A stretch of 64,000 nt of DNA, from the NCBI GenBank assembly GCA_963677925.2, contig CAXXYH010000004.1, positions 1,120,001 to 1,184,000 of the forward strand, written 5' to 3'. Each line of letters starts with the position of its first letter. Within the stretch, counting starts at the first letter, position 1. A program made the position numbers. The DNA is from Spirochaetia bacterium (GTDB lineage: Bacteria; Spirochaetota; Spirochaetia; UBA9216). Below, in pieces: positions 18,001 through 42,000 of this stretch.

Positions 18001-21000
18001 TTCGTCACAGGTCTGCTAATATAAAATAAAACGGATAAAGTATTGGCAGTTGAAATCGTTTATGAAGAAAATAATAAAATTGGTATAATTTTCCCTTTTG
18101 ATGCCCAGATTCTGGATATTGTACGCACAATACCCGGAAGACAATGGCAGCCCGCAAATAAAAAATGGACATTTCCGGATACTGATGCAAATATGCAGCA
18201 TTTTCTCTTATCATTATATAAAACCGGCAGGTTTAATGTGGATGAGAAGGCTCTCGAAAATCAGGAACCGTCTCATAGCCGCTATTTGGAAAAAATGCTT
18301 CAGTATCTAAAGCTTAGAGACTATAGTCCTCATACTATTGAAACGTATAAGATGCAGCTCAAGTGGTTCTTTGATAGAACAGAACTTTCTCCTTCAGAAG
18401 TCACGACCGAGGATATCAAATTATATCTGGAGAAAATGCGGACACTGGCGGGGTGTTCAAGAACATACTTTGTACAATGTGTGAGCGCCCTGAAAAGCTT
18501 CTATAAGTATGGTTATCCCGGCGGTCTGTTTAATCCTGCAGCATCGATTCCCATGCCGAAAAAAGAAAAGAAGTATCCGGATATTCTATCCAGGGAAGAA
18601 GTGAAGAAGATAATAACATCTCCGTCGAATATTAAGCACCGATTGCTATTATCATTAATATACTCTGCAGGTCTCCGAGTAAGCGAAGCCGTTATAATAC
18701 AGTTGCAGGATATTGATACCGATAGGAAAGTAATTCATATCAGGCAGGCAAAAGGACGAAAAGATAGATATGTAATGCTTTCAACTGAGATTATTAATAT
18801 GATTAATCAATACAGATCCAAAGTGATGGTGCATACATGGCTTTTTCCTGGCAGTGCAGGTGCGGATACCCATCTTGCTACAAGATCTGCACAGAATGCC
18901 TTTTATAAAGCTATAGAAGCAACAGGTATCGAAAAAAATGTAAGTATACATTCTTTAAGACATGCCTTTGCCACTCATCTGTTGGAAAACGGTACAGACC
19001 TGAGATATATTCAGGAGCTCTTAGGTCACCGTGATCCAAAAACAACACAGATTTATACACATGTAAGTACTAAAGACCTAAAAAATATAAATAGTCCACT
19101 GGACGGGTTATTATGAATAACAGGTTTATAAGGATTTAAGCTGGAGGGTTATATGAATGATATACCAGTTTATAATTCTGAGTTTATATGCAATGGACCC
19201 GACAAGAGGAAGACGCCCGGACCTCCGGCCGACGGGCGAAGAGACATAAAGGTGGGGGATTTTTTATGCAAGATTTATATATAAAATATAATAAGAAAGA
19301 TAATAAAATTGATTTTGGGCAAACAAAAGGCTCAATAATCGAGATTACTATAAAGCCACCTTCAATCGTTAAAGAAACAAAAGAAACAGGCATAACGAGA
19401 ATATCTGCTATTCAAGAAGATTTTGATAATCTAATTTCGGGAAAGAAGATGATTGACGTTAATAAAACGACTCTCGAACATTGTTATATCTTGGATAAAA
19501 AGGATCCTTACCGATTAGCGGCGACAAATTTTATTTTAAAAAATGAAAAGGATATTGAAGAATATAGTGAAATTCCAAAAGAAAATGATGCTGGTATATA
19601 TAAAAACTATGTAAAAGCATTTTTAGAAGAATTTACAAGATGTACGAAACACATTCCGTTTGCTGAAAAAATTAAAGTCTATCCTTTACCATTGTTGACT
19701 CCATGTAATGTGGAAGTATTAGTAGGTAAAGATGGTGTGTGCTTTATTTTCTCATCAGAAAGTAGACCTGAAAAAGTAAGTGTTTCCTTAGATATAAATA
19801 AAATAATAGAGGAACTTCTTCTGCCTCATCCTACTAATAGAAGATATTCATCATATGGACCTAATACTATTTTTAATTTTATCTGCTCAGATGAGAATTT
19901 TATACATGTGGTAGGGGATGGGAATGCGTTTTTAGATTCTATGCTAGGGAATCCAGTATTTTTGATTTTTGAAAAATCGTTTCATGGTTATTATTCCAAT
20001 ATGAATTTTATAAGAAATTATCCTGATACGGGACTTCAAGTTAAAAAGAAAGTTGAATATTGTGAAATATTTGGTAATAACCATATCTCTAACTTTTCAC
20101 TTGAAAACGCAAGGAGTAGAGCTAGGATAGTTGCGTATAAATCAATTTTGAGTAGTGTTACAGGAAATGTTAATAAAGTAGAAGAACTTAAAAATGTCTT
20201 GATAGAATTGAAAAACAAAATAAACAATGATGTCGGTGAAATAGAAATTGAGAAATTTATTGATTCAAATAAATGGATTTTAGAGAAAGGGATAGGGTGT
20301 CAAAAATATTTTTCACAAATTTCGATACCGAAAGATTTATTATATGATGCTGATGGTGGAATTAAACCTGATAAATATATGATGAATAATGACGGATATT
20401 GTGATATTTTAGATTTAAAAAAACCATCAGCCAAACTAATTGTAATAAAGAATAACCGCAGTCATCAATCTAGTTCTTTAACCGAAGCGGAGGCACAAAT
20501 TGATAAATATATTGATTTCTCTCGTGAACCAAAGGTTAGAGATTATTTATTAACGCTTAATATAAAAATTACGAAACCTGATGGAATTGTATTGATTGGG
20601 AGAACCCCGAAGGAATATTTAAAAGAATGGATTGATATAAAAAAGAGATTACAAATAAAAGTATATACTTATGATGATTTAGTTAATAATTTGGATAATT
20701 TAATTGATTGGATAGATAAGATTCTTACAATTTGAATTAAGAATCCAGACCTAACTCCGTTGAACGGTCTGGATGTCGGGTCCAAAGCATAAAACAGGGG
20801 CTATGTGTATCGTCGCTATGCGCTCCTCGGGCTGCGCCACATACGGCTACGCCGTACGTCACATAACACCGGGACGTTATGAGCAATAAGCCCGACAAGT
20901 AAAAGACGCCCGGACCTCCGGCCGACGGGCAAAGAGAGACAGTGTGATAAAATATTATACTAAAAAAGTAAATATAGAATTAAGGGTTTTCATATGAAAA

Positions 21001-39000: not shown

Positions 39001-42000
39001 TAACTATGATGAAAAACGTTTCAATAAAAACTGGAGAGAAAATATTCCTGAAGGTTTCAGTGTAAAAAGAATCAGCTCGGAAATTATTAATTCAATTGAA
39101 AATAATGAAGAATTTGTAAATTACATAAAATTTGCCTGGACAACAACTGATCAGTATTTTGACAAAGGATTGGGATACTGTGCTATTGATGCAAATGATT
39201 TTGCAACAATTTGTATTTCTGTTTTTGCTTCTGAAAATGAGCGAGAAGTGGGGATTAAAACATTTCCTGACTTTCAAAGAAAGGGATTGGCATATGTTAC
39301 AGCCTGTGCCTATATTGAAGAATGTTTAAAAAATAATTTTGTTCCTGTCTGGTCATGTTTTAGCGAAAATAAAGTATCAATAAGATTAGCAGAAAAACTT
39401 GGCTACAAAATCGAAGCCTCGCATCCGATTTATTTTGCGAAGATTGGTGATTGAAGAAAACGTATCGCTGGGCATCCATGCCTCTCTACAGGCTTGCATT
39501 CCTGTGCTTGCTGCCTATAACAGAGAATATACACTGCGGCTCGCCTTGGCATTCTGCAAATCGCCTTTGACAAATACCTGATGAAATGTGATACAATTTC
39601 CCATATATTTATTACCCCTATAGGGGTGCCAGGCGACTTTCGTATATTCGAGGAACGTTAGGCCATAATTTATGGAGAAAAAATGGATGTACATATAAGT
39701 AAATTAAACTCCAATACGGATGTTCCTATGGATTTATTGCTACTTGCCGATCCATCGGAAGAATTAGTTAAAAGTTATCTTAAAAAGGGAACATGCTATA
39801 TCGCTGAATTTGATGAAGAAACAGTTGGCGTTATTCTTATTGTGGAGACAAAACCACATACTGTTGAAGTTATGAATCTTGCGGTTAAAGAAGAACTGCA
39901 TAATAACGGTATAGGCAAAAAACTCCTCTTGCACGTTATTGAAGAAATAAAAAAAAGTGATACAAAAACAATTGAAATCGGAACTGGAAATCCCGGAGTA
40001 GTACAAATGTTATTGTATCAAAAGTGTGGTTTCCGTATCGTAGGGATAGATTTTGATTTTTTTAGAAGGACGCATCCTGAACCGATATATGAGAATGGAA
40101 TAGAATGCCGTGATATGATAAGAATGAGAATTGAGTTATAGTATGGAGGGTCTTAACGGTTTTATCCATAAACAGCCCTAACAGCGAATATGCGGTTCTA
40201 CATGGCTTCAACCAAATTAGCCTGCGGCCAACTTCGCATATTCGCGGGACGTAATCTGAAATGCCACCGCGAAGATGTAGCTGCCCGGGTCTCCGGCCGG
40301 CGGGTGATTCTGCAGAGAAAGAATTAAAAACTGTCACGATATATCAAGGTCTATACTTTAAGTAGAGCTGAGTATATGTAAAACTGCAAAAATATTTCAG
40401 AATGGAAGATCTCAAGCCATTCAAATCCCGATAGAATATCAGTTTAAAGGTTATGAAGTATACATTAAAAAACATGGTGATGCTGTATTGCTGATTCCAC
40501 ATGAAAAAGTATGTGAATTAATAAAAGAAAGATCGAAAGAATATAATCCGGTTTATGATGGTCCTCAATTTAAAAATATTAATATCAAACCTTTCAGAAT
40601 AAATGAGTCTGCATCTGAAGAACTCTTTAAGATTAGATATTTTTTCAATCAAAATAAAAATACATTTTACTTTCTTTTCAAGAAAAAAGAGTTAATTGGT
40701 GCAACTCTATATCTGTGAAATTATATTCAATCGCTCTGCATTAACCGAAAGTACCAAAGAATGGGATATGGTGCTAAGCTAACAAAATTCGTTGTAAATA
40801 AAATACTATCAGATGGTCATGACAAGGTTACATTAAAAGTTGTAATTGAAAATATTCATAATTAATGTTATTAATTATAAGTTTGTCTTTTGTGACAGGC
40901 TAATTCAAAAGTAGGAGAAACGTATGAGTTTCAAAAGCAAAAATGAATTAGGTCTATCTGACGTATGTTGTAAGAATTTTTTAAATGATTTAGAAACCGA
41001 AAATGTTTGGAGTTTTTTTCAAAGATTTGAAAAAGATTCAGACCCCACCGATTTAACTGTAGCCGAAGAGTCTTATTTTGATAATTTTCTGTTTTGTGAT
41101 CCAAGTAGTGCTAATTCAATTAAGAAAGAAGATTTCTTGAAATTTTTACCAATTATGACAACTAAATATAAAGAGTTGGGGTACAAAGATAAAAAGTTAA
41201 AAGGACTAGATGTCATCAAATTGAATGATTATTATCTATTAGTCAATGTTACCTGGAATATGATATTTGTAAAGAATGATTTATTAAATGAATATGATGA
41301 TATTAAAGCTACTTATATTTTAAAAAAAGAAAAAAATGGGCATAAAATTATATTTCATTTGGATCATCAAAAATTAAGTGAGATTGTCTAAAAAAAGATA
41401 AGAAATGAAGATAAATCCGTGACTCTTAATAATTAAAATTTCCTCAATCTTTTAAAGATAAAAAGTGAGAAAAATTCTTGCAAATCATGTAATAACATAG
41501 TAAGCTATATGTAATTACATCAATATTTAGGGGCCTCAATGCGTATACCAATAATTAATATCGGAAATTCTAAGGGGATAAGGATTCCTCAGGCAATTCT
41601 TAAACAGGTTAGCTTTAGTGGTGAGATTGACTTAGAAATTGATAATGGAAAAATTGTTTTAAACAGATCCAATAGTCCCGATATAGTACCGGATTTTGAT
41701 TCAATACCGGAAATGGATGATATTACTATACAAAGAATGTTAAGAAAAATAACCGGTATGGATCTGATCACTTCCTTAATAGATGCAGATCAAAGTATTA
41801 AAGAAGCTGTCTATAGAAATCTATCAGAACGCGTTAGAAATTATGTGGTTTTAAAAGTAGAAAAGTTGGAGAAGGGAGATGCTAAAGATTTAATTATTGA
41901 GCAAAGCCGTAATGCTATAAGTGAAGCCTTTATGGATTTAAAAAATGAATAAAGTAAAGGAGGCTTTAATGGAGAATTTGAATAAGATAATGGAAATGAG

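Follow-up and report, generated by a model that had tools for sequence, protein, structure and literature searches.

A tyrosine recombinase with a HARP-like N-terminus heads an attC cassette array in a Spirochaetia genome: a putative second, integron-like platform

Introduction

Which enzyme moves the cassettes of an attC array headed by a tyrosine recombinase that scores below the integron-integrase cut-off? The question is raised by a stretch of 64,000 nucleotides from a Spirochaetia bacterium (contig CAXXYH010000004.1; hereafter the window). A preliminary description had placed about 22 co-oriented attC sites, four of them composite, downstream of such a gene and had interpreted the locus as a possible second type of cassette platform. 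Every testable part of that proposal (IntI membership tests, recurrence, the G|TT boundary) held. We consider it probable, at roughly 60%, that the array belongs to a second, integron-like platform with this recombinase as its cognate integrase, the enzyme's catalysis on attC being putative. A classical integron with a different attC family, newly seen here, is present on another contig of the same genome.

Results

The recombinase ORF was confirmed to be intact (Table 1), and its product was 96% identical to the copy of the sister species (G001). In profile searches it scored 232.5 bits against NF040815 (cut-off 220) and 194.2 bits against TIGR02249 (cut-off 265), the latter match being broken into two stretches. 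In an alignment to VchIntIA (2a3v), residues 79-252 corresponded to chain residues 3-175 and residues 277-354 to chain residues 241-318; alignment to the IntI of the same genome left two gaps, one of 31 and one of 8 residues. The recombinase had 61 residues between a fixed pair of alignment columns, versus 101-102 in 15/15 insertion-bearing rows. Judged from these alignments, the IntI insertion of approximately 41 residues is absent, and the earlier assignment of the protein outside IntI was supported both by model and by this gap. The catalytic set is intact, as had been described: R212, K237, H303, H329 and Y338 were invariant among 74 aligned homologues and R306 was present in at least 90%. 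The AF2 model had a mean pLDDT of 87.9. The best matches among solved structures were archaeal XerA proteins (4a8e, E 2e-40; 5hxy).

An N-terminal HARP domain had been reported at 25.2 bits. That score was not recovered, 22.3 bits being obtained against the Pfam cut-off of 25; a HARP-like domain was retained, with much better support at family level. HARP was detected at E <= 0.01 in 40/74 homologues, and the top PDB match of a domain profile was the HARP domain of SMARCAL1 (4o66_A, E 4e-5). A model of the domain (pLDDT 87.5) gave the same chain as its top Foldseek match (probability 0.98, TM 0.57/0.61, E 0.06). The HARP domain of SMARCAL1 is a structure-specific DNA-binding module. In the recombinase, the HARP-like domain may help to recognise folded or branched DNA, in part replacing the insertion that does so in classical integrons.

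Table 1. Features of the recombinase gene and its cassette array (window coordinates; R2 and R3, covariance models for type-A and type-B attC)
Feature	Position	Strand	Remarks
HARP-Xer-like tyrosine recombinase gene	18043..19116	+	intact ORF, 357 aa, TTG start; AF2 model
N-terminal HARP-like domain, residues 1-60	18043..18222	+	two beta hairpins, helix after each
SAM-like core-binding domain (residues 82-156) and catalytic domain (182-343)	18286..19071	+	residues 252-277 without IntI insertion between
attI-like spacer ending GAG|TT, G at 19182	19117..19184	+	synteny with sister species stops here
Cassette array, 22 cassettes, type-A attC closing each	19183..40264	+	nearly all ORFs on + strand
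59-nt conserved cassette leader D6, first copy	19184..19242	+	
attC type A site 1	20787..20889	+	R2 91.7 bits
attC type A site 2	21659..21763	+	R2 94.9 bits
Composite site 3, type-B attC nested 22604-22749	22519..22850	+	R2 69.5, R3 178.4 bits
Composite site 4, type-B attC nested 23846-23991	23760..24092	+	R2 72.9, R3 171.6 bits
Composite site 5, type-B attC nested 25127-25273	25039..25374	+	R2 65.7, R3 101.8 bits
attC type A site 6	25820..25922	+	R2 106 bits
attC type A site 7	26782..26882	+	R2 98.2 bits
attC type A site 8, long loop	27636..27823	+	R2 74.6 bits
Composite site 9, type-B attC nested 29240-29386	29155..29486	+	R2 71.1, R3 135.3 bits
attC type A site 10, end of 476-nt repeated cassette copy 1	29867..29963	+	R2 71.8 bits
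attC type A site 11, end of 476-nt cassette copy 2	30343..30439	+	R2 77 bits
attC type A site 12	31092..31195	+	R2 97 bits
attC type A site 13	31981..32082	+	R2 97.3 bits
attC type A site 14	32790..32889	+	R2 87.4 bits
attC type A site 15	33642..33732	+	R2 68.9 bits
attC type A site 16	34528..34630	+	R2 88.5 bits
attC type A site 17, long loop	36260..36415	+	R2 64.2 bits
attC type A site 18	37115..37218	+	R2 92.3 bits
attC type A site 19	37887..37974	+	R2 69.1 bits
attC type A site 20, degenerate 3' core	38483..38574	+	R2 50.2 bits
attC type A site 21, weakest	39513..39670	+	R2 35.8 bits, E 1.4e-6
attC type A site 22, last	40174..40264	+	R2 71.5 bits
Tail of variable low-GC region, no detectable attC	40265..43452	+	G001 synteny resumes 43452

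The R2 model (filters off) gave 22 type-A sites between 20787 and 40264, all on the + strand with E <= 1.4e-6. These included four composites of approximately 330 nt, in agreement with the number first described. On the reverse strand the same sites scored 13-16 bits only, and with the same settings no attC was found from 40264 to 47000. The first model, R1, gave at least 18 matches genome-wide, 16 of these in the array (best 150 of 488 candidates scored); the best 150 candidates per genome were scored in all whole-genome RNA searches, and all such counts are therefore lower bounds. The type-A stem is a 10-pair helix, interrupted solely by a symmetric 1x1 mismatch. Changes on both sides were seen in 11/25 pairs and RNAalifold gave 10/20; the 16/20 compensatory pairs reported earlier were not reproduced as such. 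Type-A cells were paired in 91.8% of cases, versus 83.0% in shuffles (0/500 as high) and 24-40% when partners were slid.

The cassettes carry five toxin-antitoxin pairs and GNAT acetyltransferases, the first cassette being Shedu-like, and this content is typical of chromosomal integrons. Further copies of the D6 leader start at 20877, 21752, 22838, 26870, 27811, 31183, 33720 and 40252. D6 also occurs in true-IntI arrays.

The distance from the recombinase stop codon to the G of G|TT is 66 nt, not 68 nt as had been given. The spacer is partly alignable with those of G001, G007 and G004, with a GGTTAT... element, about 30 nt, then GAG|TT. An attI-like site was retained; conservation across the phylum had been described, and its sequence could be aligned within the two closest genera but no further. 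Identity to G001 was 95.1% over 15400-19184 and ended at 19184, bearing out the turnover described from the G|TT. Synteny resumed 24 kb on, at 43452, with 93.5% identity. Between these positions few cassettes were in common, and these at other positions, the rest being different or reordered; the opening letters of the first G001 cassette are also found after one of the window's internal attC sites. Cassette turnover is bounded by G|TT.

Core-like genes flank a low-GC block at 18-45 kb, and the variable region runs 3.2 kb past the last attC. Both would suit a larger integrative island that carries the array by chance, its integrase acting on the island ends and not on attC. We hold this to be highly improbable: the breakpoint leaves the gene in the conserved part, with the same identity as the flank, the left boundary G|TT is identical to the cassette junctions, and the interior consists of modules delimited by attC sites rather than of one island. 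At gathering thresholds the window gave no match to a tRNA or other RNA family.

Co-oriented attC sites downstream of the orthologue were re-found in G001, G004, G006, G007 and G012. At least 57 of the 67 R2 matches in these five relatives were directly downstream of the orthologue and co-oriented with it (at least 34/36, 8/8, 3/5, 11/14 and 1/4, respectively). A second Spirochaetales clade at 37-39% identity (G005, G002, G039), for which no R1 match had been described, showed at most one weak match and no clear array; the match in G005 was weak, co-oriented and downstream. Across 80 loci (1.05 Mb), R2 at E <= 5 gave 21 matches: 14 in 8 HARP-bearing loci, all on the + strand and downstream, and 7 in 4 HARP-less loci, each of them upstream on the - strand. 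Arrays of attC-like sites headed by co-oriented homologues that carry HARP and lack the insertion occur in other Spirochaetota, Flavobacteriaceae, Gemmatimonadaceae and a Thermodesulfobacterium. In Algibacter, Winogradskyella, Seonamhaeicola and Gilvibacter the downstream sequence contains repeat families with the anatomy of attC; in Winogradskyella and Seonamhaeicola many attC-like copies were on other contigs. Of the 17 distant HARP loci for which 4 kb or more of sequence was available downstream, 7 showed no array and another three a single weak match. The gene-array geometry is conserved across phyla.

In a quick-search tree with an unresolved backbone, the 15 insertion-bearing rows formed one clade (SH-aLRT 100) with the window's 7-row clade (99) outside it. 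By this quick tree the recombinase lies outside the IntI clade. A HARP-like N-terminus is also found on insertion-bearing IntIs of Treponema and relatives (L076, TIGR02249 422 bits; L110; L115; L118). Together with the co-orientation known for Treponema integrons, this would suit a degenerate 'inverted' integrase of Treponema type that had lost its insertion and activity and left a fossil array. A clade joining the window's clade to these four HARP-plus-insertion IntIs was rejected, at a cost of 96.5 log-likelihood units (p-AU 0.0006, the group having been chosen post hoc, after the tree was seen). The intact ORF, its identity to the sister copy, the retained catalytic residues, the turnover of arrays since the species split and the insertion-less HARP proteins heading arrays in several phyla also oppose this explanation, which we regard as quite improbable.

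A true IntI is encoded at C3:128526-129455 (+) (382.9 bits; 48.6% identical to IntI1), and it heads a divergent array of approximately 75 kb with another attC family, type B. In the type-B consensus (RNAalifold) the 5' arm carries a one-base bulge. In VchIntIA the insertion reportedly contacts extrahelical bases, and the bulge-less type-A stem therefore fits an enzyme without the insertion. Among the R3 matches listed (41 of 42), 37 span C3:51594-126784 (-), divergent from IntI, and the remaining 4 are all nested in the composite sites of the window. In G001 at least 27/31 R3 matches adjoin IntI, and in G007 all but 3 of those listed fall in 4417881-4524343, beside IntI. The 22/22 type-A sites of the window (R2) are behind the HARP recombinase. 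Over 193 kb surrounding 16 true-IntI loci plus the L076 locus, R2 gave just 4 matches at E <= 0.1, all beside the IntI of the genome studied. The two attC families are almost fully partitioned between the arrays in the studied genome, G001, G004 and G007.

The array could instead be a CALIN whose cassettes are moved only by the IntI of the other contig, the HARP-Xer-like gene being unrelated or having another job, such as local resolution or stabilisation of a repeat-rich array. IntIs accept varied attC sites, so that action in trans is possible. An IntI-family gene was present in 9/9 genomes (this one included) with an orthologue at >=50% identity, that of G004 being split over two frames and that of G008 cut at a contig end. 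Cross-talk is seen in the type-B sites nested in four type-A sites, in two type-A matches within the IntI array, one strong and one weak (25 bits), and in the D6 leader common to both arrays. Published work also treats the insertion as required for integron function, Messier and Roy (2001) being cited for its necessity to IntI1 activity; this counts against the HARP recombinase as cognate integrase. We nevertheless judge the CALIN explanation unlikely. IntI has its own arrays of 75-100 kb with a different, very uniform attC family and hardly any mixing, and no IntI above the TIGR02249 cut-off was found in 4/5 distant genomes with HARP-recombinase arrays. The earlier objection that IntI does all the recombination is weakened on both counts, its premise of an IntI in the genome being correct. 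In four phyla, arrays with unrelated attC sequences show this recombinase-first, co-oriented arrangement, and turnover begins exactly at the G|TT beside the HARP recombinase gene. A separate XerC/XerD-like pair (C4:2273242-2274102 and C4:2277961-2278809) is also present in the genome.

Discussion

The reading preferred here is of a sedentary, integron-like platform whose integrase would not be IntI, combining a HARP-like N-terminus with an Xer/XerA-like core without the insertion. The recombinase would insert circular cassettes at the attI-like site, and cassettes would be excised and reshuffled by recombination between folded type-A attC hairpins, with strand exchange at the conserved G|TT. 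The substrate is presumably single-stranded folded attC, and we infer that the HARP enzyme, not IntI in trans, catalyses these events. The platform would operate in parallel with the classical integron of the same genome, with limited cross-talk. This suggests that recombinases other than classical integron integrases can also serve integron-like gene capture.

The N-terminal 60 residues resemble the HARP domain of the annealing helicase SMARCAL1 in sequence profile and predicted fold. In SMARCAL1, HARP accompanies an SNF2 motor, whereas here the HARP-like domain is fused to a tyrosine recombinase and its DNA binding is putative. The recombinase resembles XerA/Xer proteins in its best structure matches and in passing NF040815; it differs in being bacterial, in its extra HARP domain and in sharing a genome with an XerC/XerD-like pair. 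Unlike the recombinases of Xer-dependent dif modules, as generally known, it stands at a cassette array with hairpin sites and not at a dif site.

Under the published IntegronFinder rule, taken by its description alone, an integrase must match PF00589 and intI_Cterm, and the array would therefore be filed as a CALIN. It differs from a CALIN in having a conserved, intact, IntI-related recombinase in fixed geometry and an attI-like boundary. In the 'inverted' integrons of Treponema, IntI is co-oriented with the cassettes. These integrons share with the present locus a co-oriented gene directly upstream of the array and, in the four IntIs named above, the HARP-like N-terminus; their IntIs differ in keeping the insertion (101 residues between the two alignment columns, versus 61 here), in scoring 422-458 bits against TIGR02249 and in falling inside the IntI clade.

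With classical integrons (Vibrio; the C3 array) the locus shares a tyrosine recombinase heading the array, an insertion point ending in G|TT, and cassettes closed by imperfect hairpins whose cores are AAC...GTT and whose stems covary. One ORF orientation, an abundance of toxin-antitoxin, acetyltransferase and defence genes, and rapid turnover between close species are also common to both. It differs from them in a recombinase that lacks the insertion, scores under the IntI cut-off, appears outside the IntI clade and carries a HARP-like domain, in the co-orientation of this gene with its cassettes, and in an attC family unlike that of the co-resident IntI, with a stem free of the one-base bulge.

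Recombinase gene and protein family

GC content falls from about 0.48 to 0.24-0.43 across window 18-45 kb. The recombinase gene and further features of both cassette systems are listed in the table. The encoded protein (the HARP recombinase) was matched to PF00589 with 145.1 bits (cut-off 27.1) and has a tyrosine-recombinase catalytic domain with the full R-K-H-R-H-Y set. Among 74 homologues, R212, K237, H303, H329 and Y338 were invariant, and R306 was kept in at least 90%.

The preliminary description had called the recombinase XerA-like, below the integron-integrase (IntI) model and devoid of the IntI-specific domain, and the present comparisons bear it out on each count. 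NF040815 (XerA-like) was passed with 232.5 bits (cut-off 220). TIGR02249 (IntI) was matched in two stretches with 194.2 bits against a cut-off of 265; the true IntI of the genome under study (G000) scored 382.9 bits on the same profile. Three comparisons agreed that the protein has no insertion of about 35-40 residues near patch III. Its match to VchIntIA (2a3v) is interrupted at the IntI-specific region, with 24 residues in the HARP recombinase versus 65 in the chain. In the alignment with the G000 IntI (30% identity), gaps of 31 and 8 residues mark the insertion place. In a 105-row alignment, two marker columns were separated by 101-102 residues in 15/15 IntIs, by 57-68 in every insertion-less row and by 61 in the HARP recombinase.

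Features of the HARP-recombinase array and distribution of the two attC families (positions are window positions unless a contig is named; type A, family of the HARP array; type B, family of the true-IntI arrays)
Feature	Genome	Position	Strand	Remarks
Tyrosine recombinase, 357 aa	G000	18043-19116	+	Intact; left edge of low-GC block
First cassette, 515-aa protein	G000	19188-20735		Shedu SduA C-terminal domain, 48.1 bits
D6 leader (59 nt, GC-rich), first copy	G000	19184-19242		Directly after G↓TT
D6 leader, eight further copies	G000	20877, 21752, 22838, 26870, 27811, 31183, 33720, 40252
GC-rich conserved hairpin (family D11)	G000	20736-20780, plus seven further copies		Fold z-score -1.7
476-nt cassette, two tandem copies	G000	29453-30405		72-aa ORF without Pfam match
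Composite sites	G000	22519-22850, 23760-24092, 25039-25374, 29155-29486	+	Complete type-B attC in each apical loop
Small ORF	G000	41539-41952		FliG C-terminal domain match; within 40265-43452
True IntI	G000	C3:128526-129455		48.6% identical to IntI1
Type B	G000	C3:51594-126784 (37 listed)	-	At least 42 R3 matches; the 37 divergent from IntI
Type B outside the IntI array	G000			4 of 42 inside the four composite sites; 1 of 42 unlisted
Type A	G000			22 behind HARP gene; one strong (85 bits) and one weak (25 bits) inside IntI array
Type B	G001			At least 31: 27 beside its IntI, 3 on C2, 1 nested in HARP array
Type A	G001			34/36 behind HARP gene (at least 36)
Type B	G007 (one contig)	4417881-4524343		At least 56; listed ones beside its IntI, with three exceptions
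Type B, exceptions among listed matches	G007	One at 3.92 Mb		The other two nested in HARP array
Type A	G007			11/14 behind HARP gene (at least 14)
Type B	G004			At least 18: 4 beside its split IntI, rest on three other contigs
Type A	G004			8/8 behind HARP gene (at least 8)
Types B and A	G006			Type B at least 6; type A 3/5 behind HARP gene (at least 5)
Type A	G012			1/4 behind HARP gene (at least 4)

Type-A attC sites and cassette contents

Repeats bounded by ...TAAC and GTTA... recur across window 20.8-40.3 kb. Fourteen simple copies of this family (type A) were aligned as a hairpin of 25 pairs. In this alignment 91.8% of cells are paired, compared with 83.0% in shuffles (0/500 as high) and 24-40% with partners slid, and both sides change at 11 of the 25 pairs. 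Type A has the marks of an attC family: an imperfect hairpin, AAC/GTT cores at the ends, a covarying stem and arrays on one strand.

The window was searched without filters using R2, a covariance model broadened with sites of related genomes. This returned 22 type-A sites, all on the + strand with E values of 1.4e-6 or lower; the opposite strand of the same places gave only 13-16 bits. Four of the 22 are composites of about 330 nt. With R2 and filters off, no attC was found between 40264 and 47000. A hairpin finder combining AAC...GTT with fold was dropped, having returned 3 sites (insensitive) or 69 candidates across the window (noisy); attC calls rest on repeat families and covariance models instead.

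The array cassettes encode five toxin-antitoxin pairs, two GNAT acetyltransferases, a methyltransferase and an inositol-monophosphatase-family protein, and several cassette ORFs are without a family match. The first cassette, the most promoter-proximal one, carries the Shedu-like gene, which is a candidate for anti-phage defence. In the array of the sister species (G001), the 476-nt cassette occurs in at least nine copies, partial or full.

In 9 cassettes the D6 leader follows the G↓TT directly and precedes the start codon by 25-60 nt; its exact 23-nt core is also present in true-IntI arrays and in relatives' arrays. It had no Rfam match and folded no better than shuffles. The leader was left unnamed because no Rfam family reached its gathering score anywhere in the window, and a search of 19100-23000 at E<=1 gave nothing beyond chance-level matches. 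The D11 hairpin stands at cassette 3' ends, about 15-30 nt ahead of several type-A attC, and may be a terminator-like element.

GC skew on the + strand is positive throughout the window. If + is the leading strand, the ORF-complementary strands would lie on the leading-strand template, as reported for sedentary integrons.

attI-like boundary and cassette turnover

Identity with G001 is 95.1% from 15400 to exactly 19184 and is regained at 43452 with 93.5%; between these points few cassettes are common to both genomes, and these lie at other positions. The sequences diverge after GAG↓TT. The preliminary description had placed the start of turnover at a G↓TT 68 bp after the stop codon; the boundary holds, and the distance from stop codon to the G is corrected to 66 nt. 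The first G001 cassette then opens with the letters that stand after one of the window's internal attC sites. The attI-like spacer could be aligned among the window, G001 and two relatives (G007 and G004), with a GGTTAT... element separated from GAG↓TT by about 30 nt, and not beyond these genomes.

The non-syntenic low-GC stretch runs 3.2 kb beyond the last detectable attC (40265-43452). Three sequencing runs are listed, none of them recorded as RNA. Contigs of two runs contained many joints at repeats, indistinguishable from assembly-graph ambiguity or strain mixture, and gave no evidence on excision either way.

Two cassette systems in one genome

G000 has one true IntI. A second attC family (type B), longer and very uniform, was found from repeats that adjoin the true IntIs in G001 and G007 and was modelled as R3. 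The type-A distribution was taken from R2, except in G000, where whole-genome matches to the earlier type-A model R1 were combined with the R2 run on the window. Whole-genome RNA searches scored 150 candidates per genome, and the attC counts are therefore lower bounds. As the distribution by genome shows (table), the two recombinases stand at the head of separate arrays that differ in site family and in geometry: the IntI array is divergent from its gene, the HARP array co-oriented. Beside the insertion-bearing IntIs of the relatives no attC was returned by R2; those arrays are not empty but use another attC family.

The region C3:51594-129455 is a classical sedentary integron with at least 37 type-B attC over about 75 kb; the IntI arrays of G001 and G007 extend over about 42 kb and about 106 kb, respectively, and are thus of comparable or greater size. 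G007 also has a third small cluster, of three type-A sites and one type-B site on the - strand (C1:3906571-3922963), away from both recombinase genes. In G004, an IntI-family gene is present in two adjacent pieces (C45:6889-7828; profile positions 2-204 and 198-315) and looks frameshifted; type-B sites and a HARP array are present in the same genome.

Each type-B site nested in a composite is accompanied by flanks of about 40 and 70 nt, which an A/T-rich inverted repeat closes. The same nesting was found in three other genomes (G001 C9:478762; G007 C1:3519118 and 3522799; G006 C15:328985). Composite sites could link the two cassette systems in the manner of an adapter. Such visible cross-talk also speaks for a different account, possible where an IntI is present, in which IntI acts in trans on the cassettes.

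The predicted site structures are consistent with the HARP enzyme as the integrase of its array. In attC sites, extrahelical stem bases set strand choice. For the type-A stem the prediction shows a symmetric 1x1 mismatch and an asymmetric spacer of 1 versus 5 nt, without a one-base bulge; such a bulge is present in the consensus predicted for type B. In the VchIntIA structure the IntI insertion reportedly contacts extrahelical bases, and a bulge-less stem would suit an enzyme without it.

Homologues in other genomes

Orthologues of at least 50% identity were found in G001, G004, G006, G007, G008, G010, G012 and G020. A co-oriented array follows in 5/8, which are all those with downstream sequence; in the other 3/8 the gene lies no more than a few hundred bases from the end of its contig.

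A wider sample of 80 loci from named genomes (1.05 Mb) was searched with R2 at E<=5. Of 21 matches, 14 fell in eight HARP-bearing loci and all 14 were downstream on the strand of the gene. These loci belong to a Thermodesulfobacterium MAG, a Spirochaetota MAG, Flavobacterium aciduliphilum, a Gemmatimonadaceae MAG, Algibacter onchidii and three other Bacteroidota. The remaining 7 fell in four HARP-less loci, from candidate-phyla bacteria, a Pacearchaeota archaeon and a Firmicutes MAG, and 7/7 were upstream on the other strand. Repeat searches additionally revealed arrays of a common Flavobacteriaceae attC-like family downstream of the gene in Winogradskyella, Algibacter, Seonamhaeicola and Gilvibacter.

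Downstream sequence of at least 4 kb was present at 17 HARP loci, of which 7 had arrays, 3 had single weak matches and 7 had none. The association of gene and array, described beforehand as conserved, is upheld in the 5/5 orthologues with downstream sequence and is not universal in the wider family, 7/17 distant HARP loci being without an array. Against action of IntI in trans, no IntI above the TIGR02249 cut-off was found in 4/5 distant array-bearing genomes, and the Gemmatimonadaceae MAG has one over the cut-off, 1.3 Mb away.

Three Firmicutes homologues were covered: L030 has less than 1 kb downstream, and L064 and L097 are HARP-less, with no R2 match and one weak match, respectively; the three are uninformative on the association. 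Three loci, from Peregrinibacteria (L059), Pacearchaeota (L062) and Patescibacteria (L081), encode XerA-like proteins without HARP and without the IntI insertion, and have R2 matches upstream on the opposite strand, the classical geometry. TIGR02249 gave 209-212 bits for L059 and L062; the reading frame of L081 is interrupted by a stop codon. Recombinases that lack the insertion and adjoin attC sites may extend beyond the HARP family.

N-terminal HARP-like domain and phylogeny

A HARP domain had previously been assigned to the N-terminus. Pfam HARP (PF07443) matched residues 17-48 with 22.3 bits, below the gathering cut-off of 25; support for a HARP-like domain is good at family level. Pfam HARP was matched at E<=0.01 in 40/74 homologues (best 4.1e-8). 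A profile built from 23 N-termini placed 4o66_A (SMARCAL1 HARP) first among solved structures (E 4e-5; runner-up 0.07). The predicted fold comprises two beta hairpins with a helix after each (pLDDT 87.5), and Foldseek on this model likewise returned 4o66_A first (probability 0.98, TM 0.57/0.61, E 0.06).

The same N-terminus was found in four true IntIs, from a Treponema MAG (L076), G002 (L110), G012 (L115) and G022 (L118), all with the insertion and TIGR02249 scores of 422-458 bits. Downstream of L115 lie two attC-like sites, co-oriented with it and of a third sequence type. HARP accompanies co-orientation in true IntIs as well as in insertion-less enzymes. At title and abstract level, this domain was found in no integron paper. 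Its fusion to a recombinase is a testable lead on the recognition of folded or branched DNA.

A quick IQ-TREE analysis was made of 105 catalytic cores. The 15/15 insertion-bearing proteins, including IntI1, formed one clade (support 100), with the four HARP-bearing IntIs as a nested clade (support 96). The HARP recombinase fell in a seven-row Spirochaetales clade (99) outside the IntI clade. Forcing this clade together with the HARP-bearing IntIs cost 96.5 log-likelihood units (p-AU 0.0006), the group having been chosen after the tree was seen. The backbone is open, and the HARP-recombinase clade may be sister of the IntI clade.

Interpretation and significance

Judged from sequence, the simplest account would be a second integron-like platform with the HARP enzyme as its integrase. 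On this account the enzyme would, as IntI does, catalyse attI x attC and attC x attC recombination on folded single strands. A further-reaching reading, in which HARP-bearing insertion-less recombinases are a widespread independent cassette-integrase lineage, was assigned a probability of 0.4. The lineage would range over Spirochaetota, Bacteroidota, Gemmatimonadota and Thermodesulfobacteriota, and perhaps beyond. If this further-reaching reading is true, folded-attC cassette platforms are independent of the IntI insertion and may predate it, and the HARP domain gives structure-specific recognition of a hairpin or replication-fork-like intermediate. Many supposedly integrase-less clusters of attC sites (CALINs) would be complete platforms, and G000 would host two coexisting kinds that exchange cassettes through nested adapter sites.

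Cury et al. (2016) report 50/18,808 non-IntI recombinases near attC sites, scattered on the tree where genomes are IntI-less; four between IntI and Xer adjoin fewer than three sites, and insertion-less attC-adjacent tyrosine recombinases are explicitly dismissed there as not IntI. By Smyshlyaev et al. (2021), an 'integron-like' subgroup is described with an insertion 'not fully conserved'. Ghaly et al. (2022) give the additional domain as present in archaeal IntIs and the reverse orientation as typical of Spirochaetota IntIs. For Bacteroidetes, IntegronFinder 2.0 records formerly In0 elements only and now one complete integron, in Salinibacter. No literature linking HARP domains or insertion-less recombinases to attC arrays was found in a search of mostly open main texts.

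Both the definition of integrons and their detection by software rest on the IntI-specific insertion. If an insertion-less family is conserved and has its own attC, an attI-like boundary and arrays of fast turnover, cassette platforms would need a wider definition. Part of the abundant 'orphan' CALIN arrays would then be re-classed and Flavobacteriaceae would gain integron-like arrays. The family would also bear on the evolution of IntI out of Xer-like enzymes, and two parallel systems in one cell would be a natural experiment on the co-evolution of recombinase and site specificity.

Comparison with known systems

The array would probably be classed as a CALIN (at least two attC without a neighbour matching PF00589 plus intI_Cterm), the insertion being absent from its recombinase. 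With XerA (NF040815, archaeal Xer) the HARP recombinase shares a score above the curated cut-off. XerA is defined as the sole chromosome-dimer resolvase and acts at dif; G000 has a separate XerC/XerD-like pair, and the gene context of the HARP recombinase is a cassette array. With IntI it shares the catalytic set, an adjacent attI-like site and an attC cassette array, but it is without the insertion, scores below the TIGR02249 cut-off and falls outside the IntI clade.
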